Shown: positions 12,635 to 47,129 of the stretch, piece after piece | Position numbering within the stretch: the stretch's first letter is position 1 | Layout of the letters: each line of letters starts with the position of its first letter | Assembly: GCA_965223325.1 (NCBI GenBank) | Contig: CBDCWI010000002.1 | Location: forward strand, 1,632,001 to 1,696,000 | Source: Candidatus Multivoradales bacterium | GTDB lineage: Bacteria; Acidobacteriota; Thermoanaerobaculia; Multivoradales; Multivoraceae | Direction of reading: 5' to 3' | Length of the DNA: 64,000 nt | Position numbers and translations under genes: made by a program | Notes under the pieces: generated by a model | Seen by the model: only the letters and a program-made list of their open reading frames with translations | What the model was told of the DNA's origin: nothing | Database searches by the model: none

Positions 12635-13918
12635 CAACGCAGAAGGCCTACGCCGTGGAGCGCCCGCGCCGCAAATAGGTCTTCAGCGGCGCCACACCAA
12701 ACCACGGCACGCCGGCCGCAAGCTCGCAAACAACCGGTGTCACTCGACACATCGAAGCCAAGAATCCGCGGCGCGCGCACGCCCATCGAAGTCAGAGGAC
12801 GCAAGTGCAGGGGAAGCGCCAACGCAGAAGGCTCACGCAGCGGACCGCTTGCGCCGCTAATGTGACTCTAGCGGCGCCGGTGGTAACGACCGCCCGCCAT
12901 CACGAGCTCGCGCGACCAACGCACCACCTCTCCAGCCCGCAGCTCGCGGGCCGCAAGCTCGCAAACACCGGTGTCACTCGTCACATCGAAGCCAAGAATC
13001 CGCGGCGCGCGCACGCCCATTGAAGGAAAGGAGCGCAGGTGCAGGGCGGCCGCCAACGCAGAAGGCGCACGCAGCGGACCGCTTGCGCCGCTAGTGTGAC
13101 TCTAGCGGCGCCGGTGGTAACGACCGCCCGCCATCACGAGCTCGCTACTCCAACGGCACTGCCCACCAAACCACGGCACGCGAGCCGCAAGCTCGCAAAC
13201 ACCGGTGTCACTCGACACATCGAAGCCAAGAATCCGCGGCGCGCGCACGCCCATTGAAGGAAAGGAGCGCAGGTGCAGGGCGGCCGCCAACGCAGAAGGC
13301 GCACGCAGCGGACCGCTTGCGCCGCTAGTGTGACTCTAGCGGCGCCGGTGGTAACGACCGCCCGCCATCACGAGCTCGCTACTCCAAGGGCACTGCCCAC
13401 CAAACCACGGCACGCGAGCCGCAAGCTCGCAAACACCGGTGTCACTCGACACATCGAAGCCAAGAATCCGCGGCGCGCGCACGCCCATTGAAGGAAAGGA
13501 GCGCAGGTGCAGGGCGGCCGCCAACGCAGAAGGCTCACGCAGCGGACCGCTTGCGCCGCTAGTGTGACTCTAGCGGCGCCGGTGGTAACGACCGCCCGCC
13601 ATCACGAGCTCGCTACTCCAACGGCACTGCCCACCAAACCACGGCACGCGAGCCGCAAGCTCGCAAACACCGGTGTCACTCGACACATCGAAGCCAAGAA
13701 TCCGCGGCGCGCGCACGCCCATTGAAGGAAAGGAGCGCAGGTGCAGGGCGGCCGCCAACGCAGAAGGCTCACGCAGCGGACCGCTTGCGCCGCTAATGTG
13801 ACTCTAGCGGCGCCGGTGGTAACGACCGCCCGCCATCACGAGCTCGCTACTCCAACGGCACTGCCCACCAAACCACGGCACGCGAGCCGCAAGCTCGCAA
13901 ACCACCGGCGACGCTAGA
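12635..13918 (-). repeat. tandem array of about 5.5 x 234-bp palindromic intergenic elements (CTAG-hairpin family, locus 2)
   Basis: GCTTGCGCCGCTA at 12847, 13081, 13315, 13549 and 13783 (period 234), with a degenerate copy at about 12635-12840. The terminal unit has a 17/18-bp inverted repeat at 13803-13820/13901-13918. Confidence 0.95.
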
Positions 13919-34969: not shown

Positions 34970-35923
34970 ATGAATCCCATGACAGAAGCCCACCTCCACC
35001 GACCGAGAGTCTCAGCGTCTCTCAGAAGTCTCGCGCGGCCGCGGAGTTCTTCCCTAGCGTTTGCGGTCTCCGCTTTCGCCATGCTTCTGTACGGCGGTCT
35101 CGTGTCCTCGCAACAGGCTCCCGACCTCTCCTGGGCTCGCGTGACCTGGTCGGAACTCGAGCTCAAGGCGAAGAAGCTCTTGATGACGGCGACCGCCAGA
35201 GTCGAGCTCACGCCGGTACCAGGAGCAAAGGCACGGGAACAACTCGGCCCGCTCGGCTCCGGCACGCCGCGCATGCCGAGAGAGACGGCCATCCAACTCG
35301 GTTTGCACTCAGACTTCGTCGGTCGCCGCTCGAGTACCAGGCTGTGGGTCGACCCCGCCGACGCCTCGGCCTTCGAGCGCCACCAGATCGAGAGTGGCAA
35401 GCGCCAGCGCTCGAAACGCTATCGCTACGCTAGCGAAGGGGTCTGGTCCGAGCGTCTGGTCCCGAGAGACAAGTCTGAGAGAACCCTCGCACCCGAGCGT
35501 TGGAGCGACCGACAGGAAAAGTTCGACCAGCTCCCCGCAGCCAGGACGCGCGGTCTGAGCGAGCCCGGCGCGCTCCTCTACCTGATCTCGGCAGCGGCAA
35601 TCGAGGACCTCGAGCAAGGCATCACCTTTCCGGTCTTCACCCGCGGGCAAACGACGGCGGTCGTCGCTCGCGGCGTCAAGCGGGTTGCCGTGCCGGTGAA
35701 CTTCAACGTCGCGGGCAAAACCATCTCAGGTGACCGTGCCGCACTCCTGGTAACCCTCGACGCCGAGTCCACCGACGGAAAGGAAGAGTTCGAGTTGCTC
35801 GGTCTCGAAGGTGACATCGAGATCTACCTCGATCTCGAGCACCGCATGCCGCTCATGATCTCGGGACGGGTCTCACCGGTGGGAAAGGTGAACATTCGCC
35901 TGACCCGGGCGACCCTGCGCTAG
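34970..35923 (+). CDS. hypothetical exported protein (DUF3108-like beta-rich)
   Basis: Hydrophobic N-region; C-terminal DIEIYLD..RMPLMISGRV..GKVNIRL resembles the DUF3108 end; start uncertain. Confidence 0.6.
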   Translation: MNPMTEAHLHRPRVSASLRSLARPRSSSLAFAVSAFAMLLYGGLVSSQQAPDLSWARVTWSELELKAKKLLMTATARVELTPVPGAKAREQLGPLGSGTPRMPRETAIQLGLHSDFVGRRSSTRLWVDPADASAFERHQIESGKRQRSKRYRYASEGVWSERLVPRDKSERTLAPERWSDRQEKFDQLPAARTRGLSEPGALLYLISAAAIEDLEQGITFPVFTRGQTTAVVARGVKRVAVPVNFNVAGKTISGDRAALLVTLDAESTDGKEEFELLGLEGDIEIYLDLEHRMPLMISGRVSPVGKVNIRLTRATLR

Positions 35924-35937
35924 CCGAGATCCTTTCT

Positions 35938-38409
35938 TCAAGCGTCGAGCGGCTCGCCGGTATCGAACAACGGCTGCGCGATGCCGCTTGTCGAAAGTGA
36001 CCAGGGCGTCCACAACAGAAGCTGCTGGTTGACTGCGATATCAGTCTTGAGGGGACGCACGTCAATGCGCTCGAGCTCAGTGTCGGCCTCCTCGAGCCGC
36101 TCTCGCAGCGCGTCGAGCTCCCGCGCCGCCTCGGCCTCCAACTCGGTTTGCTGTTCGAGCAACACCTCGAGCTTCTCCTCGGCGTGCTCGACGTCTTCTC
36201 GATCTTTCGAGCTGCGGCCGAAACCACGAATCGCCATCCCGGCGCGTCGAACGGCGGTGGCGCTGAGCTTCTTGCGCCCCATGAGAGTCCCGAGAACCCC
36301 TACACCGACATTGACCAGCGCGGAGCGCTTGCTGTCTTTGAGTTGCACCTTCTCCTTCTCGACCCGCTGGCGCGCCGTCAGGAGTTTCCCCTCGAGCGAC
36401 TCGAGCTTCTTGGCGTAGCTTTGACGCAGCTTCTCCACTGCTAGATCGCGCGCTTCCTTGAGGTCCTGCTGAATACGGCGTCGAAAGTCGCCCTCGGTTT
36501 CGCCAGGCTCGGAGTACTGCTTGAGTCCAGGGTGTTTCCAGATGGTCTCGAGCTGGGTGCGGTAGAGCTCCGACGACATCTTCTTCGCCGCCGCACTCCA
36601 GGATTTCTCGCGCATGCCCGGCGCGGCGAGCGGCGCGAAGCGGGCCCCCTTCTCGGGCCGCTTCCAGAGCTTCGGCTCCTCGGGCAGGCGCGCCGCCTCT
36701 TCCCAGCTGAGGCTGCGCGAACCCTCCTCGATGGGCGCAACCAGAAAGATCTCTCGCCAATCATCGAGACCAACACTGGTGCGCTTGAAATGCATCTCCG
36801 CCGCACCGAACATCATTGGCCGGTAGACCAGCTCCTGGTTGTCCTGCAGGTCCTCCTGCGGACGAAGGAAGCGCTCCACCACCGCCGCCGGCAGCTGCGG
36901 CCGCTCGGCAGCTTCGGAAGCCTCGGCTGCGACCTTGTTGGCCGAAGCCTCGCGAGCCTTCTCTTTCGCAGTCGGCCTGGTGAGTGCGCGGCGCGCCCCC
37001 TCCATGAGGCGTTGAATCTCCGCCCGCACCAGCGGCCCGCGCAAGTAGGAGAGCACCCAGCGGGTCTCGAGCACGACCGGTGCATCTTCGTGCACATTGT
37101 TGAGCAGGAAGCGGCGCTTACCGAGCCGACCAATCGTCTCTTCAAGCTCGCTCTTGTCGAGTTCCCGGCCGGCATCGGTCGACGCACCCTCGAGACCGCC
37201 CAGCACCCGCGCACGATCACGCTCCGTCTGAAGGCGGCCAATGAACCAGCTGCCGCAGTTCGAGAGGCCTTTGTAGTCGAGATCGACCGGGTTCTGCGTC
37301 GCCAGCAGGACACCGACGCCGTAGGCGCGCGCCTGCTTGAGCAGCGTCAGCATCGGGACCTTGGAGGGCGGATTCGCCGTTGGCGGAAAGAAGCCGAAGA
37401 TCTCGTCCATGTAGAGGAGGGCCCGAAGACTGCTGGTTCCGGTCTGCGACCGCATCCACGAGACCATCTCGTTGAGAATCAACGTGACCACGAACATCCG
37501 CTCGGCATCACTCAAGTGAGCAATCGAAATGACCGAGATCTTCGGCCGCCCGTCGGGACCGTACAGGAGGTTCCCGATATCGAGTGGCGCACCTTCCATC
37601 CAGGCCGAGAACCCGGGTGACGCCAGCAGGTTGTTGAGCGACATCGCCAGAGCGCTACGCTCCTTTGCCGGCAGGAACGTCTCGAGATCCATCACTCCCA
37701 GGCGATCGAACGGCGGCTCGACGATGGCGCGGATCATTCCCGCAAGATCGAGATCCTGACCGTCGCGCCAGGAATGGTCGAGGATGTTCGAGATCAGAAT
37801 ATGCTCGCGACTCTGCAGCGGATCGGCCTCGATGCCCAGAAGCGACAGCAGCCCTGAAACCGCCGACTGGGTGCGCTCGCGCAGCGCGTCCGGGTCATCT
37901 CGAACGGCCTCGCCCGGGGCGGCAAAGGACCGCAGCACCGAAAGCGAAAGCCCCGAAGTCGCACCGGGGGTGTAGATCGACACCTCGGCAGCTTCCCTGA
38001 AACGTTGGATCCGGGATGGTTCCTGACCCCACTCAGCCAGACCGTTCTTCCACAGCTCGGCCGTGTCAGCGGCGTACTCGGCCGTCGAACGACCGTTGCG
38101 GGTCGCCTCGGCCGGATCGACCCAGGGCTCGAAGTCCTCTGGCCGTAGCTGGGGGAAGGTCAACATGAGGTTGCCCATGTCTCCCTTGGGATCGATGACC
38201 AGACTGGGAATGCCATCGATCGCAGCCTCCTCCAGGATGCCCACCGAAAGACCCGTCTTGCCGCTCCCCGTCATGCCGACAATCACCCCATGCGTGGTCA
38301 GGTCACGCGAGTCGTAGAGCACCGGCTCGTCGCTGGGCTCACCGTCTTCCGCGACGCGCCGACCAAGGTAGAAGGTCCCGAGTTTTTCGTAGTCCGCTGC
38401 TGCAACCAT
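35938..38409 (-). CDS. HerA/FtsK-superfamily ATPase (DUF87/DUF853-like) with C-terminal coiled coil
   Basis: THGVIVGMTGSGKT (Walker A), IDPKGD, LLYMDEIFG (Walker B) and LATQNPVDLDYK. Confidence 0.88.
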   Translation of the reverse strand: MVAAADYEKLGTFYLGRRVAEDGEPSDEPVLYDSRDLTTHGVIVGMTGSGKTGLSVGILEEAAIDGIPSLVIDPKGDMGNLMLTFPQLRPEDFEPWVDPAEATRNGRSTAEYAADTAELWKNGLAEWGQEPSRIQRFREAAEVSIYTPGATSGLSLSVLRSFAAPGEAVRDDPDALRERTQSAVSGLLSLLGIEADPLQSREHILISNILDHSWRDGQDLDLAGMIRAIVEPPFDRLGVMDLETFLPAKERSALAMSLNNLLASPGFSAWMEGAPLDIGNLLYGPDGRPKISVISIAHLSDAERMFVVTLILNEMVSWMRSQTGTSSLRALLYMDEIFGFFPPTANPPSKVPMLTLLKQARAYGVGVLLATQNPVDLDYKGLSNCGSWFIGRLQTERDRARVLGGLEGASTDAGRELDKSELEETIGRLGKRRFLLNNVHEDAPVVLETRWVLSYLRGPLVRAEIQRLMEGARRALTRPTAKEKAREASANKVAAEASEAAERPQLPAAVVERFLRPQEDLQDNQELVYRPMMFGAAEMHFKRTSVGLDDWREIFLVAPIEEGSRSLSWEEAARLPEEPKLWKRPEKGARFAPLAAPGMREKSWSAAAKKMSSELYRTQLETIWKHPGLKQYSEPGETEGDFRRRIQQDLKEARDLAVEKLRQSYAKKLESLEGKLLTARQRVEKEKVQLKDSKRSALVNVGVGVLGTLMGRKKLSATAVRRAGMAIRGFGRSSKDREDVEHAEEKLEVLLEQQTELEAEAARELDALRERLEEADTELERIDVRPLKTDIAVNQQLLLWTPWSLSTSGIAQPLFDTGEPLDA

Positions 38410-38493
38410 CGTAACCTCTCATCGAACGCGGGAGTCGCCGGGCCCGTCCCTCGACCTCAGACCTTCTCCAGGGCAGACGGTCCCTCGCTCTTG

Positions 38494-40575
38494 CTACCCG
38501 GCAGGCACTCCACGATAGCGGACGATCTCGGAGTCGAACAGCACCGCGCCTTCGCCTTTGCTGACGATCAGCTTCTCGAAGTGGTCAACCACTTTCTGGC
38601 GGCGCTCTTCGAGGCGTTCCATCTCCCACTCCTGCAGCACATCGCCCAGTTCGCGCTCGAGAACCGGGGCATCCAGGTCACGGAGGCGTTCGAACATCAC
38701 CCGCTCGACGCGCCGCAAGTCTTCGAGAGCCGGGATCTCGCTGCTGGCGCCAAAGGCACGCGTGTGGTCGATCAACCACAACTGCCAGGACTCGTCAATC
38801 AGGAGGTTGCCCTGGTTGCGGTCAGTGTTCATGATGACCGCGTCGAAGACTTTCATGACCGCCTGCTGGTTCTGCCAGTCGATCGGAATCGGAGCCCAGT
38901 CCTTCTCTTTCTGACGGTCACCCTCAGTGCGCGCCTTCTCGACCCATAGTTGAAACGACGCCGGTCCACCTCGCCACGTTCGCTGCACGGCGACTGGCAC
39001 CATGTCGAGGCGCAAGAGACGGGCCAGGCGGTAGGCGGCAACCTCGAAACGATGGGAATCGATGAACGGAGCCAGCAAGCGGCCGTCTTTCAGGCGATGC
39101 TTCGCCTGGTGCTTGTCGACTGTTCTGATCACGGCCCGCGCGATGATGTCGCGGCCTTCGAGATCGACGCGCGTCGGCTTGTTGACACCGGTTGGAATCT
39201 GATCTTCGCCGATGATCTTCGCGGTTGCCAGGAACTCCTCGACTTCCCGATGGCTACCAAACGGCAGCACGGTGTCGCTGGGCCCGAGCCAGCGGTGCCG
39301 CGTGGTCCGGGTCAAGGTCGGGGGCAGCGGGGCGCCAGGACCGAAGTTGTCCGGCGGTGGCGGCACCTCGAGAAGGACCTCCTCGTCCGAATCAGCGTAG
39401 ATCACTCTCCAAACGCCATCGTCGGTGATCTCGAACGCCGAGGCGCGCCCGCCATAGGTTCGCTTGAGCATGCCCGTATCCAACAGAACGACTCGGCCAC
39501 CGAACCTCGGAGTCACGCGAAACCCCTTGATCGGAGTGTGACCAACAACCAATGCTCGGGCGCCTAGCCGCTCGAGATGTTGGGTGACGAGCACATTCCC
39601 CTCTTCGTCGTCCCAACGCGCGAAGCCTCGAAACCAGAGTGGCCCATCGGGATCAACCAGAGTCCATTCGTCGTAGCCACGACAATCGGCCAAGGCTTCG
39701 AGTGAACCTTCGAAGAAGGCACGCTGCTCGGGGTCGAGCTTGCGATCGAGTTGCTCGAGCAGGTACTCACGCTCGAGATCACCGGCACGGGCGAGCTCGT
39801 AGGCCCCCGCCGTAGCCGTAGCGACGCCACCTTCGACCGCCATGCTGCGGCAGCGGTCGTAGGTCTCGAGCTCCCAACGAACACGCTCGTTGAACTCTTC
39901 GAGGCTCTTCGTGCCGTGGGTTGGATGCAGGCCCGCGTGCAAGAAGATCACGTCTTCGACCCGCGCGATGATCGGCAGCGTCCGCAACCAGGAACCGATT
40001 GCACCAGCAGGTGACAGCGCCGCCTGGTACTCAATCCAACCGGGTGGGCGGTTGGCGAGAAACTCCTCTTTGTCTTTGTTTGACGTTCCAGCTGCACCGC
40101 GACGCTTGCCGAGTCGCTTGCTGCGCCGCTCGAGGAACAGAACGTGGTCTTCCCAGGCCTGCGCGCGACGGTCCTCCGAGTGCTCGTCGATGAACTCGGC
40201 CAGTGCATCTGCAGCGACGTCGCGGTAGATGCCGAGCAGGTTCATGCCCTCGTGGTTGCCCAGCAGCACGGTCACGCGACCATTGTCCTGGGGGGCTTCG
40301 CGCTGCAGTCGTTTGAGCAGCTCGACGACCCGAATGTGGTCGGGGCCTCGGTCGAGAAAGTCGCCGGTCTGGACGAGGTGCGTACTGCCACCGCTCCAGC
40401 GCAGCTCTTCGTCGACCAGCTCGAGTTTTGAAAGAAGCGCGGTCAACGAATCGTAGTCGCCGTGAATATCCGCAATCGCCACCACCCGGGCCGCCACCGG
40501 GCCGGTCGCCGCGAGCGACAACAAGACGAGAAGCCCTGCGATGAGGGCCTGCCAGCCACTGAGTCGCAGTCGCAC
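38494..40575 (-). CDS. exported fusion: Shewanella-like PPP metallophosphatase plus atypical (PI3K/HipA/Fam20-like) kinase domain
   Basis: Signal peptide; phosphatase motifs ADIHGD, GDFLDRG, GNHE, HAG, GPLWFR, GHT and LDTG; C-terminal FEVAAYRL, NTDRNQGNLLI and LIDHTRAF. Confidence 0.85.
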   Translation of the reverse strand: MRLRLSGWQALIAGLLVLLSLAATGPVAARVVAIADIHGDYDSLTALLSKLELVDEELRWSGGSTHLVQTGDFLDRGPDHIRVVELLKRLQREAPQDNGRVTVLLGNHEGMNLLGIYRDVAADALAEFIDEHSEDRRAQAWEDHVLFLERRSKRLGKRRGAAGTSNKDKEEFLANRPPGWIEYQAALSPAGAIGSWLRTLPIIARVEDVIFLHAGLHPTHGTKSLEEFNERVRWELETYDRCRSMAVEGGVATATAGAYELARAGDLEREYLLEQLDRKLDPEQRAFFEGSLEALADCRGYDEWTLVDPDGPLWFRGFARWDDEEGNVLVTQHLERLGARALVVGHTPIKGFRVTPRFGGRVVLLDTGMLKRTYGGRASAFEITDDGVWRVIYADSDEEVLLEVPPPPDNFGPGAPLPPTLTRTTRHRWLGPSDTVLPFGSHREVEEFLATAKIIGEDQIPTGVNKPTRVDLEGRDIIARAVIRTVDKHQAKHRLKDGRLLAPFIDSHRFEVAAYRLARLLRLDMVPVAVQRTWRGGPASFQLWVEKARTEGDRQKEKDWAPIPIDWQNQQAVMKVFDAVIMNTDRNQGNLLIDESWQLWLIDHTRAFGASSEIPALEDLRRVERVMFERLRDLDAPVLERELGDVLQEWEMERLEERRQKVVDHFEKLIVSKGEGAVLFDSEIVRYRGVPAG

Positions 40576-41087
40576 TACAGATTCCCCATCGCTTCGTCTG
40601 GAATCACCGCCGGCGTAGCTCGCAGATCGGAGTCGTCCTCTTCTTCACCCGAACGCCAGCGACGGTCCTGGAGGATGCGGCGAAAAAGGCCCTTCACGAT
40701 TTCAATGTTGTTCGAGAGCAAATCAAAAAAGTCATCGGCTTCGAGCACCAGTGCCGTCGTGCGACTCACAGCGCGCGCCGAACCGCGGCGCAGACGACCC
40801 GAGAGAACTTCGCGCACGCCGAACGGCTCGCCGGCGCGCACCTCAAGGCTTCCGCCATGCGCCTCTTCGACCGTCGCCAACCCATCGACGACGCAGTAGA
40901 TCGCCAGCGGTTCGCAGTTGGCCTCGTAGATCAAGGCGCCCTCTTCGAAGGTTTCGGTGCGCGCGATCTCGGCGATTCGGAGGATCTCGCGGGCGCTGCA
41001 GAAGCGGAATAGATCGATCTGCTGCAATAGCATGACGATCTCGATCCTCGCCGGCGCCGACGGGTCGTTGTTGGCGAAACCACTCAT
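40575..41087 (-). CDS. cyclic-nucleotide-binding domain protein
   Basis: LLQQIDLF..RIAEIA..F..GALIY..AIYCVVDG..GEPFGVREVLSG..RRGSARA; stop overlaps the next start by 1 nt. Confidence 0.88.
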   Translation of the reverse strand: MSGFANNDPSAPARIEIVMLLQQIDLFRFCSAREILRIAEIARTETFEEGALIYEANCEPLAIYCVVDGLATVEEAHGGSLEVRAGEPFGVREVLSGRLRRGSARAVSRTTALVLEADDFFDLLSNNIEIVKGLFRRILQDRRWRSGEEEDDSDLRATPAVIPDEAMGNL

Positions 41088-41137
41088 CCCTGAACTGAAT
41101 CAACCTATCACGCGGCCCGCTCATTCCAGGCTCCCAT

Positions 41138-44014
41138 TCACTCGGCATTAGCGGGCACGCCAAGAGGGCCCGGCCCGGCAAGACGAGCGAGAAGCCAATG
41201 TGCGGTTTCGGCGGCAATCTCGCTCGTTGACGTCGTTGCCTGCTGCGCGACCCGTGCCGCCACTCTGGACTCGAGCGCCTGTGCCACCTCGTAGAGAGCC
41301 GCAGCAGCGATCCACTCGCGGGCGTGATCGACGGGCTTCCCATCGGCGCGCGTTGCGGCCAGCGAGAGTTCGCATAACGTCTCGGCGCGCCCTTCTAGAA
41401 CCTCGCCGGTCTCGCGCTCGGCCAACCGCAGGCGCGCCGTCAGCGGAAGATCGTCGATGACCGAGAGCACGGCCCGACGCAGGGGGCCCGTCAGGATGTT
41501 GTCGAGGTACTCGAGGGCATGACCTCCGACCTCCGTCGAGGTGGAGTGAAGACCACGCCGAACCAGGCCGATGTCGGAGCGGTCGGCGAGCATCTCGAGC
41601 AGGTCGAAAATGTTGTGGACCAACTCCTGCATCGACTCCGCCAACAGGCGCTCGAGGAGCGAAGGCACCTTGCCTTCGGCGAAGCAGACCTGGCCACCGA
41701 CGAGCTTGAAGCGCCGGAGCGGATCGAGGGCAGCCAGGCGTTGAAGCCTCGCAAGGTAGGCACGACACTCTCTCTCGATCTGGCTCCTGACCGCTGCCGC
41801 CTGTTCGTCGCTGAAGCGGAACCCCTCTAGCGAGCGCAGCGCCTCGATCACCTTGCGCCTCAGGAAGGAGTCGCTAGAGTCGAGACTGGCGATCAGCGCT
41901 GCCATCGCGGACTCGGTTCCGACCCGCGCAACCGTCTTGGGAAGCGCCCGGCGCACCCACAGCTGCTCGTCCTCTGCCGACATGAAGTGAGCCAGCGCCG
42001 GTACGACCGTCTCCCCATAGCTGACCAGCGTTGAGCGCGCCTCATGCTTGACGTGGCGATGGCCGAGAAGCGAAATCAGAATCGGAATGTAGAGCGGTTG
42101 CGGCCCGGAGTTCTCCATCCGCCTCGAAAGCGACGCCACGGCAGCACGAACCACCGCCGGGTCGCGATCGTAGAGCAGGGTGACCGCATGCTGCTGGAAG
42201 CGCGGCTCGGGTACTTCGGCAAGCGCCTTGGCAGCTTCGATCCGAACGGCGGCCGACGAATCGGTCACCAGCTCGACGAACGCGGCCTCAGCCTCCGCCA
42301 ACCACGACTCATCTTCTTGCGCGGCCAGGCATGCCACGGCGGCGGCGCGAACCCGCAAGTCGCCGTCGTGCAGTCTGGTGCGCATCAACACCGGAGCCTC
42401 CTGGTCCGACAGTCTTGCCATGGTGCGAATCGCAATCGCCCGTACATCGGGGTCGTCGTCACCGATCAGCGAGGTGACGAGGGGCAAGGCCTCGCGCCGC
42501 TCAGCGGCCGCAACGACCTTGAGCACTCGAAGGCGCACGGCGGCGTCCTCGTGGTGCAAGAGAAGCGGCGGTACCAAAGACCCCTTACCGTGTGCAGTGA
42601 GGAGCTCGATTGCACCCAGCGCGCGCTGGCCGTTGAGACTGCCCATCGCTTCGACGAGTGCCTCAATCGCCCCCGGCGAGGAGAGATCGAAACGACGCGC
42701 CAACTCGTTCTCACTGATTCCACTCGGCGCCAGGCTCTGACGTAGGGAAGCGACGTACTCGCGGCGAGCCGAGAAGGTAAACAGCAACCAACCCAGGCAC
42801 GCCGCCAGCGTCAACCAGCCGGCATCGAGCGGCGTGAGCAACCCGAAGGTAACCAAAAAGAGCAGGAGGGCGGCGGCGCTCTTGGCAAAGCGCTGGACCA
42901 GAACGTCGATGTAGGCCTTCGCCTTGCGCCGGTCGCGCTCGGGAACCGGGACGAAGAGGAGTTCGCGGGTCGACTGGTCGAGAGAGTGCCTTAGGCCGTT
43001 CTCCCCGACTTTCAGACCCGCAACGATCAGAAGAATGAGTGCCGGCGCGAAACTCACCGCAAAGAACAGCATCAGCGTCCCGGCAATCAGACCGCTCGGC
43101 AGGACCCGCATGGCAAAGCCAACGCCAAGGGAACGATGAATGCGCGAGGTGAGAAGCAACTGAAAGGCGAACGCCGCCAGCCCCATGACGCTGAAGACGT
43201 TGCCGAACACCAGGGTGCGTTCGGCTAGCGAACTCGTTTGCTGCTCGACAACCCAGTTGAACTGCAGGTCGATGACCTGTGCGACCACGACGCTGAGCAC
43301 CATGAGCGCCGAGATCGCCATCAGAAGGCGCGAACCGAGAATCACCTCGAGACCGCCGCGCGGATCATTCCCCGACACCGGCTCCGGCTCGGGCCGTCCC
43401 TGCGCTCGTGCGCGGGACTCAACGAAAAACGTCAGGATCGCAATGCCGCCGAGAAGAATCGCCGCCGCGATCAAGGTGCGCTGCGGGTCGCCGCCCACCA
43501 GACGCGGGATCTGACCACCGGCAACCGCTCCTAGGAGTCCACCGGCGCTGATGAAACCGAACAGACGCCGTGCTTGGCGCGGATCGAAGAGCTGCTGGGC
43601 GAACGACCAGAACTGGCTCATCGCCAGAACCGTGGCCACCGACACCCAGAGGTAGAACAGCACGCGTATCCACGCCGAAGGCTGCGCAAACAAATAGGCG
43701 AACACCAGCATGCCGGTTGCCAGGAGAGTCGACGTCCCGGCCAGGACCACCTGCAGACGCCATCGATCGGTCGCCGCGGCATACAGTCGAATGACCGGAT
43801 AGGCCACGATCGCAACCAGCAGATAGACAAAGGGCAGGCGCTCGGCACCCAGCGAGTCGACGAAGGTCGACTGGCGCACGGTCTTGGCGGCGTACTGAAA
43901 CGTCCCGAGCAAGAAGCAGTGCGAGAAGAACAGGAAGGCGAGCATCGACTCGCGTCGCCTCAGGTCGACTCCCAAGGCACGCAGGAGCGCCCGCAATCGG
44001 GAAGCGAGACTCAT
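41138..44014 (-). CDS. Npt1/TLC ATP/ADP-translocase-like MFS transporter fused to HEAT repeats
   Basis: About 12 TM segments with KTVRQSTF, QFWSFA..FDPRQARRLFG, LRHSLDQSTRELLFVPVP..KAKAYIDVLVQRFAK; followed by D.D..VR..A HEAT repeats. Confidence 0.88.
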   Translation of the reverse strand: MSLASRLRALLRALGVDLRRRESMLAFLFFSHCFLLGTFQYAAKTVRQSTFVDSLGAERLPFVYLLVAIVAYPVIRLYAAATDRWRLQVVLAGTSTLLATGMLVFAYLFAQPSAWIRVLFYLWVSVATVLAMSQFWSFAQQLFDPRQARRLFGFISAGGLLGAVAGGQIPRLVGGDPQRTLIAAAILLGGIAILTFFVESRARAQGRPEPEPVSGNDPRGGLEVILGSRLLMAISALMVLSVVVAQVIDLQFNWVVEQQTSSLAERTLVFGNVFSVMGLAAFAFQLLLTSRIHRSLGVGFAMRVLPSGLIAGTLMLFFAVSFAPALILLIVAGLKVGENGLRHSLDQSTRELLFVPVPERDRRKAKAYIDVLVQRFAKSAAALLLFLVTFGLLTPLDAGWLTLAACLGWLLFTFSARREYVASLRQSLAPSGISENELARRFDLSSPGAIEALVEAMGSLNGQRALGAIELLTAHGKGSLVPPLLLHHEDAAVRLRVLKVVAAAERREALPLVTSLIGDDDPDVRAIAIRTMARLSDQEAPVLMRTRLHDGDLRVRAAAVACLAAQEDESWLAEAEAAFVELVTDSSAAVRIEAAKALAEVPEPRFQQHAVTLLYDRDPAVVRAAVASLSRRMENSGPQPLYIPILISLLGHRHVKHEARSTLVSYGETVVPALAHFMSAEDEQLWVRRALPKTVARVGTESAMAALIASLDSSDSFLRRKVIEALRSLEGFRFSDEQAAAVRSQIERECRAYLARLQRLAALDPLRRFKLVGGQVCFAEGKVPSLLERLLAESMQELVHNIFDLLEMLADRSDIGLVRRGLHSTSTEVGGHALEYLDNILTGPLRRAVLSVIDDLPLTARLRLAERETGEVLEGRAETLCELSLAATRADGKPVDHAREWIAAAALYEVAQALESRVAARVAQQATTSTSEIAAETAHWLLARLAGPGPLGVPANAE

Positions 44015-44190
44015 CGCCGCGGGCCTTGGGCAGCAGGCGAGACGAGACCTCCAGGCCCTCTGTTCATGGACCCCCTCTGGCGGGCACGGTGCTGATTGAC
44101 CTCACGTGACCTCTGTATACGTTGGGAAGAGTGCAATAGATGCTAACCGAGTGACCCGCACGACGATCGAGAGCCCGGTACCATTGCCCT

Positions 44191-46164
44191 ATGACCGGTT
44201 TCGCATGGCATCCCGGCGCCGAGCACCTCGAACAGAGCCGCATCGCGCGCTTCATGAATCGCCACAGCATCGCGACCCCCAGCGAGCTACGGAGGCGCTC
44301 GACAGACGACCTCGCCTGGTTCTGGCAGGCAGCAATCGAGGACCTGGGAATCGAATTCGATCAACCCTACGAACAGGTCCTCGACAAGAGCGCCGGCGTG
44401 CCCTTTACGGAATGGTTCACCGGCGGCCGTCTCAACCTGGTCGGCAACTGCCTCCACCGCCATCGCGGCGGCCCCCTGGCCGATACCCCGTGTCTAGTGG
44501 GTCTGCACGAGACCGACGGCTCTGGCACCGAAGAGGTGCGCTACACCTTCGCCCAGCTCGCCGCCGAAGTCGACCGCTGCGCCGCTGCTCTCGTGCGGGC
44601 CGGTATCGAGCCTGGCGATCGGGTCGCCGCCTACATGCCGATGATCAGCGAAGTCGTCGTCCAGATGTTGGCCACCATTCAGGTCGGGGCGGTTTTCGTA
44701 CCAGTCTTCAGCGGCTATGCGCCGGCGGCCCTGGCAGAGCGGGTCCAGGACGCCAAGGCACGCCTGCTTTTCGTTGCCGACCGTTCCTCGAGGCGTGGCA
44801 AGCCGGTCGCCATCCTGCCCAACGCGCAGGAGGCGCTGGAAGAATGCCCGAGCGTCGAGAAGATGGTGGTCGTCGTCCGAGGTTTGCCCGGCGACCCGGA
44901 AGTCGAGCTCGACCTGGGTCGAGACGTCGCCTGGTCTGAGTTTCTCGCCAGCGGAAGCGGTGCCGGACAAACCGGTGAGCCGGTTTCGATGGCAGCGATG
45001 GATCCGGCGCTCATTCTCTACACCTCGGGCACCACTGGGCGACCGAAAGGCACCGTACACTCCCACGCCGGCACCCTCGTGCAACTCGCCAAGGAAGTCG
45101 GCTACGCCTTTGACGTTCACCCCGGCGACCGCTTTTTCTGGTTTACCGATATCGGCTGGATGATGGGTCCCTGGGCGATCATCGGCGGCCTCTTCCACGG
45201 CGGCACCGTCTACCTCTACGAAGGTGCCATCGACCACCCCACACCCGATGCGCTCTGGGCACTGCTCGAGAAGCATGAGATCAGCATCTTCGGGATCTCG
45301 CCCACCGCGATTCGGATGTTGATGGGGCTGGGGACCGAAGTGGTCGAGCGCCGCGACCGCAGCGCCCTGCGCATCCTGGGCTCGACCGGCGAACCGTGGG
45401 ACCCTGAGAGTTGGCAGTGGTACTTCGAACACCTGGGCGGCAAGCGCTGTCCGGTGATCAACATTTCGGGCGGCACCGACATCATCGGCTGCTTCTTGTC
45501 ACCGCTGCCCGTCGATCCGATCAAGCCGTGCTCTCTGGTCGGGCCAGGCCTCGGGATGGCGGTCGAAGTGTGGAATGACGAAGGCCAGCCGGTTAGAGGC
45601 GACGTCGGCTACCTGGTCGCCACCCAGCCCGCACCGTCGATGACTCGCGGGCTGTGGGGTGATCGCGAGCGCTACCTGGAGGCCTACTGGTCGCGGTGGC
45701 CCAACGTCTGGAACCACGGCGACTGGGCAATCATCGACGAGGACGGGCAGTGGTTCCTGCAGGGCCGTTCGGACGACACCCTGAAGGTCGCTGGGCGGCG
45801 CATCGGGCCCGCCGAGCTCGAAGGTGCGCTCATCGAAACCGGCCACGTCAGGGAAGCGGCAGCGGTCGGCGTACCCCACGACATCAAGGGCACCGGCATC
45901 GTCTGCTTCGCCGTCCTGCTGCCGGGTATCGAAGCGACCGAGGAACTGCGCCAGGAACTCGAGGCCGCAGTCGTCAGGCGACTCGGTAAGGTCGACCGCC
46001 CGGAGCGCATCGTCTTCGTCCCCGACCTTCCAAAGACCCGCTCGGCCAAGATTCTGCGGCGCATGGTGCGCGCCCGCTACCTGGGTGAGGACCCGGGGGA
46101 TCTGGCCTCGGTACAGAACCCTGAAGCGCTGGCGGGAATCCCCGTAGCCTCCACGGAGGTTTGA
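44191..46164 (+). CDS. acetate/acyl-CoA ligase (AMP-forming)
   Basis: ILYTSGTTGRPKG, DIGWMMG, GSTGEPW, HGDWA, GRSDDTLKVAG and LPKTRSAKILRR. Confidence 0.93.
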   Translation: MTGFAWHPGAEHLEQSRIARFMNRHSIATPSELRRRSTDDLAWFWQAAIEDLGIEFDQPYEQVLDKSAGVPFTEWFTGGRLNLVGNCLHRHRGGPLADTPCLVGLHETDGSGTEEVRYTFAQLAAEVDRCAAALVRAGIEPGDRVAAYMPMISEVVVQMLATIQVGAVFVPVFSGYAPAALAERVQDAKARLLFVADRSSRRGKPVAILPNAQEALEECPSVEKMVVVVRGLPGDPEVELDLGRDVAWSEFLASGSGAGQTGEPVSMAAMDPALILYTSGTTGRPKGTVHSHAGTLVQLAKEVGYAFDVHPGDRFFWFTDIGWMMGPWAIIGGLFHGGTVYLYEGAIDHPTPDALWALLEKHEISIFGISPTAIRMLMGLGTEVVERRDRSALRILGSTGEPWDPESWQWYFEHLGGKRCPVINISGGTDIIGCFLSPLPVDPIKPCSLVGPGLGMAVEVWNDEGQPVRGDVGYLVATQPAPSMTRGLWGDRERYLEAYWSRWPNVWNHGDWAIIDEDGQWFLQGRSDDTLKVAGRRIGPAELEGALIETGHVREAAAVGVPHDIKGTGIVCFAVLLPGIEATEELRQELEAAVVRRLGKVDRPERIVFVPDLPKTRSAKILRRMVRARYLGEDPGDLASVQNPEALAGIPVASTEV

Positions 46165-46219
46165 ACAACCCTTGACATTCCAACCCTCACCTTCCTCCTC
46201 TCGACCGGAAACCCAGCGA

Positions 46220-47104
46220 ATGAACTGGCCCCCTGTTTCGACTCTCCGCCCCCTCAACCGACTAAAGCGTCTCCTCTGCCTCGCCATTTCGCTGTGCTGG
46301 ATCGGCCCCTTCGCCGGTTCCGCGCTAGCCGCCCAGGAGCCACTCGAGGTGGCACCCGGAAGCACCGTGCGCTGGATTGCTCTCGGAACGCAGACCTGCC
46401 ACCTCCGTGGAGCGGCAGGAGACGACCGCAGTTGGCCCGCCAAGAAGGGCATTTGCTACATCCCGATCGACCTGACGCGCACCGGAACCATCGAAGCCAT
46501 GCGCACCTTTCCCGACGGCCGTTATGAGCGCCTGACACTGCGGGTCGGCGACTATCCCTACCCGGAACAGCACATCAAGCTGCAAGATGACAGTCGCGTC
46601 AACCTCTCAGATGCCAATGCCGCGCGCGCCGGGCGCGAGCGCAAACTCATCGACGCCCTGTGGCCCCGCGAAACCGCCAGCCAGTTCGAGCTGCCGCTCC
46701 ATCCGCCGCTCGCCCAGCTTCCTGAGGGTGGTCGGTTCGGAACGCGGCGGGTGTTCAACGGTCAGCCGCGTGGCCCGCACACCGGCCGCGACTATTCCGT
46801 GCCCCGCGGCACTCCGGTGCTGGCGACCGCAAATGGACGGGTCGAACTCGCCGGCGATCACTTCTTCGGCGGCAAGAGCATCTTCATCGACCATGGGGAA
46901 GGACTGATCAGCATGTACTTCCACCTCGACTCGATCGACGTCGAGCAAGGCCAGCTCGTCGAACGCGGCAAGCCGATCGGCAAAGTCGGGAGCACGGGGC
47001 GCTCGACCGGACCGCACCTACACTTCGGGCTGCGGTGGCATGGAGCGCGAGTCGACCCGGCACCGTTGATGGCGGACCCGGAAAAGCTCACCAGCGCCCG
47101 CTGA
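46220..47104 (+). CDS. M23 family metallopeptidase
   Basis: PHTGRD (HxxxD), MYFHLD and GSTGRSTGPHLHFG; signal peptide. Confidence 0.93.
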   Translation: MNWPPVSTLRPLNRLKRLLCLAISLCWIGPFAGSALAAQEPLEVAPGSTVRWIALGTQTCHLRGAAGDDRSWPAKKGICYIPIDLTRTGTIEAMRTFPDGRYERLTLRVGDYPYPEQHIKLQDDSRVNLSDANAARAGRERKLIDALWPRETASQFELPLHPPLAQLPEGGRFGTRRVFNGQPRGPHTGRDYSVPRGTPVLATANGRVELAGDHFFGGKSIFIDHGEGLISMYFHLDSIDVEQGQLVERGKPIGKVGSTGRSTGPHLHFGLRWHGARVDPAPLMADPEKLTSAR

Positions 47105-47129
47105 GCATGTAGGCCTCTGAGGCAATTGA

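Follow-up and report, generated by a model that had tools for sequence, protein, structure and literature searches.

Pairing of an NTT-type carrier gene with a gene for a predicted exported phosphatase-kinase in many bacteria suggests that ATP is passed to an extracytoplasmic kinase

Introduction

Kinases of the animal Fam20 family work in a compartment to which ATP must be supplied by a membrane carrier. The bacterial periplasm is generally taken to be without ATP, and the modifications known to take place there draw on lipid-linked or other donors.

On the carrier side, the pairing of an NTT carrier bearing HEAT repeats (NTT-HEAT) with a cNMP-binding domain (cNBD), as well as the fusion of the two, was reported in 2017 by Major, Embley and Williams (Genome Biol Evol; PMC5381601), with three Acidobacteria sequences among those used. 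In the portions of that paper drawn on here, the function of these proteins is given as unknown, cAMP-tuned ATP uptake is put forward, and an exported phosphatase or kinase partner goes unmentioned. The NTT-HEAT literature that we searched yielded no functional study.

Here we describe a locus of Candidatus Multivoradales bacterium (Acidobacteriota) which shares with the published arrangement, as presented in those same portions, the C-terminal HEAT fusion and a cNBD gene lying nucleotides downstream or fused. Beside this pair stands a gene for a putatively exported phosphatase-kinase. The first-pass annotation, made from the DNA alone, knew of no described system of this composition; that holds, as far as our searches reach, for the exported phosphatase/kinase partner, and does not hold for the NTT-HEAT and cNBD pair, which has been on record since 2017 (PMC5381601, as drawn on here). 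Our searches of the literature on periplasmic kinases or ATP export, on NTT-HEAT, on bacterial or periplasmic Fam20, and on Shewanella-like phosphatases in connection with the periplasm or a signal peptide found no published description of the combination. The carrier gene beside the gene for the exported enzyme, a pairing present in many bacteria, suggests that ATP is passed to an extracytoplasmic kinase.

Results

Gene layout and genomic context

The window, i.e. the whole 64,000-nucleotide stretch analysed, contains the following genes:

41138-44014, minus strand: P0001, NTT/TLC-type carrier with a HEAT tail (958-aa ORF)
40575-41087, minus strand: P0002, stand-alone cNMP-binding-fold protein (170-aa ORF without a hydrophobic segment)
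38494-40575, minus strand: P0003, 693-aa protein with a predicted signal peptide, a Shewanella-like PPP phosphatase joined to a kinase fold
35938-38409, minus strand: P0004, HerA_C/DUF87 P-loop ATPase (823 aa; Pfam HerA_C 3.6e-9, DUF87 4.2e-7)

The first-pass annotation had proposed three co-directional genes with a 50-bp gap and then a 1-nt overlap, and the coordinates bear this out on the minus strand: P0001 and P0002 are spaced by 50 nt, and P0002 and P0003 overlap by 1 nt (40575), the GTG start of P0003 overlapping the P0002 stop codon. Each of the three has homologues at 40-55% identity in relatives' genomes and their GC3 is 0.75-0.79, from which we judge the ORFs to be real genes. The adjacency of carrier and kinase is far above chance, because the sole TLC-like gene of the 6.69 Mb source genome adjoins one of only three kinase-like genes. 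Scanning 35500-44400 returned no sigma-70-like promoter sites, and eight terminator-like sites, no excess over shuffled sequence (mean 6.6).

P0004, which did not figure in the first-pass annotation, lies on the same strand 84 bp downstream of P0003; no terminator-like site was found in this gap by the scan, and the two genes may be co-transcribed. In 6 of the relatives' 16 loci a P0004 homologue comes next downstream of the orthologue of P0003, and it appears in only 2 of 80 wider loci (the best 80 of 547), both from those relatives' genomes, so that this linkage appears, on sequence comparison, only within the family. A reading of the four proteins as anti-phage defence was dropped: PADLOC gave only weak matches (HEAT-ARM 5.7e-7, PDC-M66A 3.4e-4, and HerA/mad8 down to 2.5e-11 for P0004) and assembled no system.

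The carrier

P0001 divides into two parts:

42701..44014, minus strand: NTT/TLC-type membrane domain, residues 1-438, with about 12 transmembrane helices
41138..42700, minus strand: HEAT-repeat domain, residues 439-958 plus the stop codon (HEAT_2 3.2e-24)

The earlier reading of this protein as a TLC/Npt-like transporter with HEAT repeats agrees with both family and fold matches. Pfam TLC (PF03219) matches in two stretches at 9.1e-11 and 41.7 bits, above its cut-off of 21, and is followed by HEAT_2 (PF13646; 3.2e-24, three stretches) and HEAT (PF02985; 1.4e-9); hydropathy gives about 12 segments. Against TIGR00769, the 'NTP/NDP exchange transporter' family, the score is 37.5 bits for a cut-off of 387.2, so P0001 is by sequence a distant NTT and not a canonical exchanger. 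Among solved structures, phmmer finds AtNTT1 (9j3j, E 3.4e-8) and 9j3n (E 1.7e-4), with the motifs FWxFA and K-x-K-A-x-I-D-V common to P0001 and the NTT structures in the alignment. The AF2 model of the membrane domain (pLDDT 94.1) has AtNTT1/CpNTT1 as all of its top five Foldseek matches (E 4.4e-12 to 1.1e-8; 9j3l at TMq 0.84), and beyond the NTTs come generic MFS proteins, SPNS2 first (2.6e-7, TMq 0.65). As modelled, the domain is closest to the solved ATP/ADP translocators AtNTT1 and CpNTT1. The HEAT tail is probably cytoplasmic, because the predicted topology places it after TM12 and the P0001 N-terminus is positively charged.

The exported enzyme

P0003 comprises three regions:

40489..40575, minus strand: predicted Sec-type signal peptide or signal anchor, residues 1-29 (hydrophobic segment 10-28)
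39376..40488, minus strand: Shewanella-like PPP-family phosphatase, residues 30-400 (Metallophos 1.2e-13)
38497..39303, minus strand: Fam20/PI4KII-like atypical kinase domain, residues 425-693 (from model and fold matches)

The N-terminus has an Arg-rich N-region, hydrophobic residues 10-28 and 'VAA' ahead of the first PPP motif. A signal-peptide-like N-terminus recurs in 57 of 62 full-length homologues, a hydrophobic segment precedes 27 of 30 kinase-only matches, and both kinase paralogues of the source genome have an N-terminal hydrophobic segment as well. P0003 is therefore predicted to be exported, and the first-pass call of a Sec-type signal peptide on a protein that is not cytoplasmic holds as a prediction.

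The phosphatase half, already proposed to be a complete Shewanella-like PPP enzyme, keeps that assignment. Beyond the Pfam Metallophos match (1.2e-13), the motifs GDxHG, GDxxDRG and GNHE are invariant in 13/13 homologues, as are residues D36, H38, D72, R76, N107, H108, H213 and H346. In the PDB, its sequence comes nearest to the cold-active phosphatase of Shewanella (2z72/1v73, E 5.6e-21), with ApaH-type structures at 3.6e-5 or weaker, and NCBIfam returned just sub-threshold ApaH/PrpE matches for this half; by sequence it appears nearer to the Shewanella type than to ApaH or PrpA/B enzymes. A hint of a disulfide between Cys242 and Cys298, co-conserved in 9 of 13 close homologues, was dropped, and no N-terminal Cys column in the wider P0003-family alignment reaches 30/66.

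These matches bear on a reading of the locus as a route for nucleotide uptake, in which the carrier, like the NTTs of parasites, imports periplasmic nucleotides, the exported domains process or bind external nucleotides or organic phosphate, and the cNBD and HEAT tail tune uptake to cell state. All characterised NTTs import nucleotides and cAMP-tuned ATP uptake was proposed for the cNBD by Major et al. (both PMC5381601, in the portions drawn on here); the phosphatase half, moreover, weakly matches ApaH-type Ap4A hydrolases (PRK00166 2.8e-11; 2qjc, 2dfj). Yet its best match is a protein phosphatase and not ApaH (5.6e-21 vs 3.6e-5), a phosphatase would destroy the carrier's own substrate, and it is not obvious what scavenging would need from a domain of Fam20/PI4KII-like fold whose catalytic loop is intact. 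We consider uptake rather unlikely.

The motifs on which a kinase had first been proposed are all present in the translation: the helix-C motif EVAAY (within FEVAAY, 510-515), the catalytic loop DRNQGN (585-590) and the metal motif IDH (602-604). The AF2 model of the domain (pLDDT 94.0, pTM 0.91) leads to Fam20. Foldseek fills its top 11 ranks with Fam20 chains (E 2.6e-9), and VIA-align gives Z 19.7 for Hydra Fam20 (5xom; rmsd 3.2, 237 aligned, 21% identity), 19.2 for DrFam20C1 (5yh0) and 18.0 for 4kqa, then 17.4 for PI4KIIalpha, 15.9 for CtkA and 11.0 for the lipid kinase MavQ, with ordinary protein kinases at about Z 8, well under the Fam20 scores. Across a 66-sequence alignment D585 is kept in 66, R586 in 65, N590 in 62, D603 in 66 and H604 in 64. 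E511 is conserved in 56/66; the usual beta-3 lysine position, however, holds Arg in 53/66 and Lys in only 3/66, which counts against the assignment. The positions were placed from alignment and secondary structure and not from superposition. The model and alignment thus uphold the earlier claim that the C-terminal domain has a kinase fold, with conserved catalytic Asp and Asn and a metal-binding Asp.

Family models fit less closely. Only one kinase family, PI3_PI4_kinase (PF00454), exceeds its own cut-off for P0003, and marginally so (3.5e-6, 27.6 bits vs 27.1, residues 556-617 only); at E up to 0.01 it is matched by 35 of the 66 homologues. Pfam found no Fam20 match (PF06702) in P0003 at E up to 0.1, and 15 of the 66 homologues match it weakly (E up to 0.01, best 2.4e-4). 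Against the SCO1664 family (TIGR03843) the score is 41.8 bits, below the cut-off of 172.4. Clustered at 50% identity, the kinase family falls into at least 2,192 groups, and 27 of 28 longer proteins with this domain also carry Metallophos, the other carrying TPR; TLC occurs in 0/28, so no carrier-kinase fusion was seen among them.

Could the carrier move something other than ATP? Still coupled to the exported enzymes, it might take a different anionic metabolite to or from them across the inner membrane, such as NAD, an NTP besides ATP, a phosphorylated sugar or lipid head group, or what the kinase produces; the enzymes would then form a kinase/phosphatase pair for lipids or glycans and not for proteins. 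NTT relatives do carry varied substrates, e.g. NAD (PMC5381601, in the portions drawn on here), and P0001 lies far under the TIGR00769 NTP/NDP-exchanger cut-off; the fold matches of the kinase domain include PI4KII (Z 17.4), 5xoo (a Fam20 'with sugar') and MavQ (Z 11.0), and its sole kinase family above cut-off is PF00454. On the other hand, a kinase-fold enzyme outside the cytoplasm would still require a nucleotide donor there, P0001 keeps the charged NTT motifs, and among solved folds the two ATP/ADP translocators come closest to it, with other MFS proteins trailing well behind. A cargo of this kind seems to us unlikely.

The cNMP-binding-fold protein

P0002 is, as first annotated, a stand-alone cNMP-binding-domain protein of 170 aa, with Pfam cNMP_binding (PF00027) at 2.8e-9 and 37.3 bits against a cut-off of 27.5. 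The canonical phosphate-binding cassette of such domains reads FGE ... R[ST]A. Here R100 is invariant, the residue that follows it varies among the nine orthologues aligned, and the glutamate of FGE is displaced (FGVxE) in 9/9. Because the cassette is non-canonical, the ligand may not be a cyclic nucleotide.

A multimer model, one of the checks suggested at the outset, was run for P0002 with the HEAT residues 430-958 of P0001 and supports docking: ipSAE is 0.66 against 0.00 for the best control. In calibration, 58 of 80 solved complexes attain the mark on this score, as do 2 of 110 mismatched pairs. Contact agreement between runs is at least 72% and partner pLDDT at least 74. The predicted site lies on the C-terminal HEAT repeats (P0001 residues 786-793, 901-908 and 933-940), with the nearly invariant L786, L790, E936 and T937 on the carrier side and the invariant E16 and V18 on the P0002 side. 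Fused NTT-HEAT-cNBD proteins also occur (P0155, P0209).

Linkage and co-occurrence

Among the relatives' 16 loci, eight have the order carrier, cNBD, phosphatase-kinase and one a rearranged order; two hold the cNBD and phosphatase/kinase genes only, and five are unlinked paralogues. More widely, among 80 loci of P0003 relatives (the best 80 of 547), 40 show a TLC-like ORF in the flanking sequence fetched; 33 of the 80 have flanks of 8 kb or more to either side, and of these 16 have a TLC-like gene and 17 have none. Three gene orders are found: NTT-HEAT, cNBD, fusion (order A); phosphatase, NTT-HEAT, one or more kinases, in Terriglobales-labelled MAGs (order B); and the fusion with a HEAT-less TLC-like gene lying convergently after it (order C), which accounts for 7 of 22 Gammaproteobacteria/Proteobacteria-labelled loci among the same best 80 of 547. 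Kinase genes split from the phosphatase encode a signal-peptide-like N-terminus of their own. The carrier-enzyme pairing occurs in Acidobacteriota, Gammaproteobacteria-labelled and other MAGs. At gammaproteobacterial loci without a TLC-like gene, a substitute transporter was considered and rejected, the conserved downstream ORF being a GMC oxidoreductase. Clustering of 1,028 ORFs from 89 loci gave no further widely recurring partner beyond phosphatase/kinase, carrier and cNBD; the next clusters are antisense frames or family-level neighbours.

Phyletic distribution points the same way. Across 41 relatives, carrier and kinase domain are found in the same 18 genomes and neither is found in 21. 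Of 121 sampled Acidobacteriota genomes, 50 have an NTT-like gene and 31 the kinase. The 50 are made up of every one of the 31 with the kinase and 19 of the 90 kinase-free ones (the 19 including G087, flagged as unpublished). The two matches lie no more than 10 kb apart in 13 of the 31; in the other 18 no kinase and NTT matches are that close together, in part owing to fragmented assemblies. The conservation of linkage anticipated in the first-pass annotation has therefore held up under the synteny and co-occurrence comparison, with several gene orders and a phyletic pattern that appear to span phyla, yet it is not universal. An NTT-like gene in every kinase-bearing genome of the sample fits a kinase that needs the carrier better than the reverse, a further point against nucleotide uptake.

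Might the adjacency simply be synteny inherited among related genomes, with no functional relation? Related genomes do share gene order, and inside the family the flanking acetyl-CoA synthetase and P0004 genes are conserved too. However, the pairing persists through three gene orders and through fusion and fission of the enzyme, while flanking genes are not kept, and the co-occurrence (31/31 vs 19/90) stands against it as well; we give this explanation hardly any weight.

Two loci that lack a Fam20-like kinase, L116 and L112, have NTT-HEAT and cNBD genes followed by PAS-HisKA-HATPase kinases, which are cytoplasmic. These, together with the NTT-like gene in 19/90 kinase-free genomes, indicate at the level of gene content that the carrier has other roles or partners too. 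They also lend themselves to a reading of NTT-HEAT and cNBD as a sensor (a 'transceptor') without bulk transport, for which kinases and phosphatases are interchangeable outputs. Against this, P0003 and its relatives are predicted to be exported, with no membrane-spanning part to connect them to the cytoplasm, and order C keeps the carrier domain though it is without HEAT and cNBD, so the conserved partner would be the transport domain itself. We regard a pure sensor as improbable.

Discussion

The best explanation for the domain identities and folds, export signals, catalytic residues, linkage and modelled HEAT-cNBD interface is that the module is a conserved envelope unit, in which an NTT-type nucleotide carrier works with Sec-exported phosphotransfer enzymes. 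That carrier and exported enzymes are functionally coupled we hold to be highly probable. How might such a unit operate? P0001, in the inner membrane, would pass ATP out of the cytoplasm in exchange for ADP from the periplasm, alone or together with Pi, in the manner of its solved relatives AtNTT1 and CpNTT1. Its HEAT tail, on the cytoplasmic side, would dock P0002, and P0002 would gate the carrier such that ATP is released only on signal. The exported kinase domain of P0003 would then use the released ATP to phosphorylate an envelope or secreted substrate, most likely a protein, with a glycan or lipid possible, and the fused Shewanella-like PPP phosphatase would take the phosphate mark off again.

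The steps of this scheme are not equally firm. ATP as the substrate of P0001, and its outward movement, we infer by analogy from kinship with antiporters only; considering that the host lives freely and has an ATP supply of its own, net flow through P0001 would run outward. ATP released into the periplasm could leak out via porins, which counts against export. We therefore put forward the full mechanism, ATP/ADP exchange feeding periplasmic phosphorylation, tentatively, at somewhat short of an even chance. More doubtful still is the generalisation that many diderms run ATP-dependent periplasmic phosphorylation, with gated NTT carriers fuelling exported Fam20/PI4KII-like kinases and PPP phosphatases.

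Were the mechanism to be true, a carrier-fed periplasmic kinase would overturn the view of an ATP-free periplasm for many bacteria of soils and sediments. The retention of the NTT carriers of 'energy parasites' by free-living bacteria would then have an explanation, and a role would fall to the NTT-HEAT/cNBD proteins, whose presence in such bacteria has been a puzzle since the 2017 catalogue (PMC5381601, in the portions drawn on here).

Set against the systems already described, each part of the locus has a recognisable counterpart. AtNTT1 (9j3j/9j3l/9j3m) and CpNTT1 (9j3n/9j3o) are the best structural matches of P0001 (TMq 0.79-0.84), with TM10-11 motifs in common at 16-17% identity; P0001 is extended by some 520 aa of HEAT tail. 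Relative to the NTT-HEAT and cNBD proteins of PMC5381601, as presented in the portions drawn on here, the third gene and the co-occurrence give the carrier a candidate extracytoplasmic client. The phosphatase half keeps all PPP metal-binding and catalytic motifs of the Shewanella enzyme (1v73/2z72), in a match that covers residues 29-118 only, and differs in being fused to a kinase and in the long insert that separates GNHE from the later His motifs.

For the kinase half, CtkA of Helicobacter pylori (3akj, a 'proinflammatory kinase'; Z 15.9, 196 aligned, 12% identity) is likewise bacterial and belongs to the same fold neighbourhood; we know of no carrier or phosphatase partner for it. Type II phosphatidylinositol 4-kinases have the DRxxxN catalytic loop and IDH/IDx metal motif in common with P0003; however, no lipid-kinase accessory regions were seen in P0003, its PF00454 match is confined to 556-617, and PI4KII acts at the cytoplasmic face of membranes, unlike a domain that is predicted to be exported. 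The best fold match is with animal Fam20C, Fam20B and Fam20A (Z 18.0-19.7, 234-237 residues aligned), and P0003, by prediction, and the Fam20 kinases are alike exported via a signal peptide to an extracytoplasmic compartment. Identity is 18-21%, and P0003 differs in its compact domain of about 270 aa without the Fam20 insertions, its fusion to a phosphatase and its bacterial host. If the proposed mechanism is right, Fam20-type secretory kinases would gain a prokaryotic relative in an equivalent compartment: a counterpart in bacteria to the kinases of the eukaryotic secretory pathway, and possibly their evolutionary source.

Gene arrangement

Four consecutive open reading frames on the minus strand make up the locus, the first three being those of the first-pass annotation:

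41138-44014, minus: P0001, 958 aa, NTT/TLC-type carrier with a HEAT-repeat tail
40575-41087, minus: P0002, 170 aa, stand-alone cNMP-fold (cNBD) protein
38494-40575, minus: P0003, 693 aa, signal-peptide protein joining a Shewanella-like PPP phosphatase to a Fam20/PI4KII-like kinase
35938-38409, minus: P0004, 823 aa, HerA-like ATPase

A gap of 50 nt lies between P0001 and P0002, a stop/start overlap of 1 nt joins P0002 to P0003, and 84 nt separate P0003 from P0004, beyond which is a convergent gene with no Pfam family. The genome (6.69-Mb, 65% G+C) has as its relatives MAGs labelled Thermoanaerobaculia or Acidobacteriota. The divergent stretch upstream (44191-49526, plus strand) encodes an acetyl-CoA synthetase, an M23 peptidase and a Ser/Thr kinase of the Hanks type that has TolB_N and TPR regions. 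Members of the family keep the synthetase and peptidase genes in synteny, but in the wider loci these two do not adjoin the module. Elsewhere in the window, a unit of ~234 bp stands in four head-to-tail copies (12790-13760), repeating a 72-aa plus-strand and a 62-aa minus-strand frame with starts at 12805, 13039, 13273 and 13507; the repeat holds no tRNA, and no Rfam family reaches its gathering score there.

A distant NTT with a predicted cNBD partner

P0001 matches the Pfam families TLC (41.7 bits, cut-off 21) and HEAT_2 (3.2e-24), and falls below the NCBIfam exchanger model TIGR00769 (37.5 vs a cut-off of 387.2). Its membrane domain aligns with the solved plastid translocator AtNTT1 (E 3.4e-8) and with a second NTT entry, 9j3n (1.7e-4), sharing with the solved NTTs the motifs FWxFA and ...S-L...E...P...K-x-K-A-x-I-D-V...K-S. 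An AF2 model of this domain (65 sequences, pLDDT 94.1) returned the five AtNTT1/CpNTT1 entries as the top five Foldseek matches (TMq up to 0.84, E 4.4e-12), the first other MFS transporters following at 2.6e-7 and TMq ~0.65. By sequence and predicted fold, P0001 is a distant NTT, and its homologues are named in databases as 'Npt1/Npt2 family nucleotide transporter', 'AAA family ATP:ADP antiporter', 'HEAT repeat domain-containing protein' or 'MFS transporter'; one homologue, P0182, is from Acanthopleuribacter pedis. Hydropathy places ~12 segments within residues 23-414, after an Arg-rich N-terminus, so that the 520-aa HEAT domain should be cytoplasmic. The public call of the carrier gene (P0125, 935 aa) is 23 codons shorter at its start than the form read here (43946-44014); the motif R-x-x-L-x-R-L-G-x-D-x-R-P, conserved at the N-terminus of carrier homologues, favours the longer form.

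P0002 matches PF00027 at 37.3 bits and has no hydrophobic segment by hydropathy. Across nine orthologues, R100 of the phosphate-binding cassette is invariant and the usual FGE is replaced by FGVxE, which makes the ligand uncertain. A predicted complex of P0002 with HEAT residues 430-958 scored 0.66 vs 0.00 for the best control; agreement of contacts between runs was 72% or more, and the partner pLDDT was 74 or higher. Of 80 solved complexes, 58 reach the mark for this score, as do 2 of 110 mismatched pairs. In the model, the helix at the N-terminus of P0002 (residues 13-36) contacts the last HEAT repeats through an interface that includes invariant or near-invariant residues on both partners. 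Contact at this end fits the fused forms, such as the carrier homologues P0155 and P0209 (~1,118 aa), in which PF00027 lies within the same chain and the cNBD comes after the HEAT end. The docking model is evidence for binding and not for a function.

A predicted exported enzyme with phosphatase and Fam20-like kinase domains

Residues 1-29 of P0003 resemble a Sec signal peptide, with Arg residues, a hydrophobic run at 10-28 and 'VAA' before the first PPP motif; the predicted mature enzyme is residues 30-693. We applied a crude export rule (a 12-residue window of mean hydropathy at least 2.0, K/R just before, and at most 45 residues to GDxHG), which 57 of 62 full-length homologues satisfy; of the five that fail it, two are gene calls starting within the hydrophobic run. 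A kinase encoded by a separate gene carries an export signal of its own: the fetched loci gave 30 kinase-only matches, a hydrophobic segment precedes 27 (one of the 27 is actually a fused form), and three score 1.5-1.8. Both kinase paralogues in the window's own genome have such a segment too. The phosphatase domain (residues 30-400) has all PPP motifs, invariant in 13/13 sequences, and is closest to the Shewanella cold-active phosphatase (5.6e-21). The protein's only cysteines, residues 242 and 298, are both present in 9 of 13 close homologues and both absent in the other four; they could form a disulfide in the exported protein.

The model of the C-terminal domain (residues 425-693, 66 sequences) has a pLDDT of 94.0 and a pTM of 0.91, and Fam20 kinases rank first in two independent structure searches. 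Foldseek gave 5yh0 and 5xoo at 2.6e-9 to 3.7e-9, with PI4KII next, and VIA-align, covering 48,161 chains, gave the following ranking.

VIA-align matches of the P0003 kinase domain
Hydra Fam20: Z 19.7 (rmsd 3.2, 237 aligned, 21% identity)
DrFam20C1: Z 19.2
Fam20 entry 4kqa: Z 18.0
PI4KIIalpha: Z 17.4
H. pylori CtkA: Z 15.9
Actin-fragmin kinase: Z 13.0
HipA: Z 11.7
MavQ: Z 11.0
CotH: Z 11.0
Ordinary protein kinases: Z about 8

Catalytic positions are well kept across the 66 sequences (D585 66, R586 65, N590 62, D603 66, H604 64, E511 56), the expected beta-3 lysine position being Arg in 53 and Lys in three. Checks that could have refuted the first-pass annotation, on predicted export of the enzyme and on a C-terminal kinase fold, both spoke for it. 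Among family models, PF00454 barely exceeds its cut-off for P0003, and the 66 sequences match PF00454 (35), HipA_2 (30), Fam20C (15) and FAM198 (3). The family comprises 2,192 representatives at 50% identity (E up to 0.001), or 1,225 at E up to 1e-10, as stand-alone forms of ~300 aa and fusions of ~700 aa, and its source names are only 'metallophosphoesterase', 'hypothetical protein' or the automatic 'PI3K/PI4K catalytic domain-containing protein'.

The nearest relatives of the phosphatase are protein phosphatases, and those of the kinase are Fam20 (protein/glycan), then PI4KII (lipid). A lipid or glycan target, or a different cargo for the carrier, has these kinase relatives in its favour, set against the ATP/ADP translocators that the carrier most resembles; we regard it as a minority possibility.

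Linkage of carrier and enzyme

Around matches to P0003 in 41 related genomes, 16 loci were compared. Eight keep the order carrier, cNBD, enzyme; one holds all three genes rearranged; two have the cNBD gene followed by a phosphatase and a split kinase, with the carrier on another contig; and five are paralogues of ~30% identity without partners. In the rearranged locus (L017, G007:C1, 6938-14539), what comes after the cNBD gene is, in order, a fragment of 66 residues that matches the P0003 N-terminus, a homologue of M23 peptidases, the gene for the carrier, an additional ORF (~347 aa) and the complete enzyme gene.

A wider set comprised 80 named loci, those ranking best among 547 relatives. In 40 of these, a membrane-domain HMM found a TLC-like ORF inside the fetched flanks, and one more has the HEAT end only, at a contig edge; where at least 8 kb was available on both sides (33 loci), 16 have such an ORF and 17 have none. 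Three gene orders occur: that of the window; in Terriglobales-labelled MAGs, one that lacks a cNBD and runs phosphatase, NTT-HEAT carrier, then a kinase or a pair of kinases (TLC plus HEAT confirmed in locus L058); and, in 7 of 22 loci labelled Gammaproteobacteria/Proteobacteria, a fused enzyme with a TLC-like gene lacking HEAT downstream of it in convergent orientation (TLC identity confirmed in locus L044). When 1,028 ORFs were clustered, no further neighbour proved to be widely shared.

Several loci show variations of their own. One expanded locus (G028:C207:3507-12663) interleaves two NTT-like genes with three kinase-like genes, and another (G084:C23:41353-48880) has five tandem kinase-like matches, with one in-frame stop inside each, adjoining one NTT-like gene. 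In L058 (15132-15542) and five more Terriglobales-type loci, a small ORF (~150 aa), weakly matching DUF5666 (4.3e-5, under the cut-off), comes after the stand-alone kinase genes. P0004, a HerA_C/DUF87 P-loop ATPase whose C-terminal region is long and charged, lies downstream of P0003 in six of the 16 loci from relatives, each of them of the same family, and appears in two of the wider 80 (best 80 of 547), from genomes already counted. No terminator-like site was found in the 84-nt gap before it. P0004 is possibly a family-specific addition, outside the core.

Co-occurrence across genomes

The genome itself carries a single TLC-like gene; its kinase-like genes number three. In its 41 relatives, carrier and kinase domains occur in the same 18 genomes and neither occurs in 21; the remaining two are a fragmented genome with pieces of each and a genome with a weak TLC match only. 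Across 121 evenly sampled Acidobacteriota genomes (at least 90% complete; kinase threshold E up to 1e-10), the kinase domain is present in 31 and the NTT-like domain in 50. An NTT-like gene is found in 31/31 kinase-bearing genomes, which span 19 families by our count, vs 19/90 others, a comparison to which we attach no p-value because related genomes are not independent. The 19 carrier-only genomes include G087, flagged as unpublished. In 13 of the 31 genomes, one contig carries a kinase match and an NTT match no more than 10 kb apart; the other 18 have no such pair, partly through genes on different contigs. The dependence looks one-sided: in this sample the kinase never occurs without the carrier, whereas the carrier does occur without the kinase.

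Chance adjacency, set beside three gene orders and the co-occurrence across the phylum, appears extremely improbable. The conserved linkage required by the first-pass annotation has held up, and the carrier and the exported enzymes very probably function together.

Four carrier loci from genomes without the kinase were sampled. In two of them, L116 (4734-13939) and L112 (1985-9069), histidine kinases of the PAS-HisKA-HATPase type lie after the NTT-HEAT and cNBD genes; L116 additionally has an Omp85-family gene, with an ORF of 548 aa on the upstream side and another metallophosphoesterase on the downstream side. Such neighbours are what a module devoted to signalling alone might have, a role that we consider improbable.

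A possible mechanism, and comparison with known systems

An exported kinase-fold domain whose catalytic loop is intact needs a nucleotide donor outside the cytoplasm, and since its sole conserved partner is related to ATP/ADP antiporters, the simplest mechanism is that the carrier supplies the ATP. As an antiporter in an ATP-making cell, the carrier would move ATP outward and ADP back, perhaps with the HEAT/cNBD part acting as a gate on the cytoplasmic side. We advance this full scheme, of ATP export and carrier-fed periplasmic phosphorylation, tentatively, at somewhat under an even chance. We think uptake or sensing of external nucleotides by the same carrier unlikely.

Our literature search found no functional study of NTT-HEAT proteins, and neither an exported kinase/phosphatase partner nor carrier-fed periplasmic phosphorylation; in a Fam20 review that we checked, 'bacterial' appears once only, in the reference list. 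NTT-HEAT proteins, the downstream cNBD gene and a triple fusion were described in 2017 by Major, Embley and Williams (PMC5381601), whose account, in the sections concerned with these proteins, leaves their function open and suggests cAMP-tuned ATP uptake; our tentative scheme would have the ATP move outward, to an exported enzyme encoded beside the carrier.
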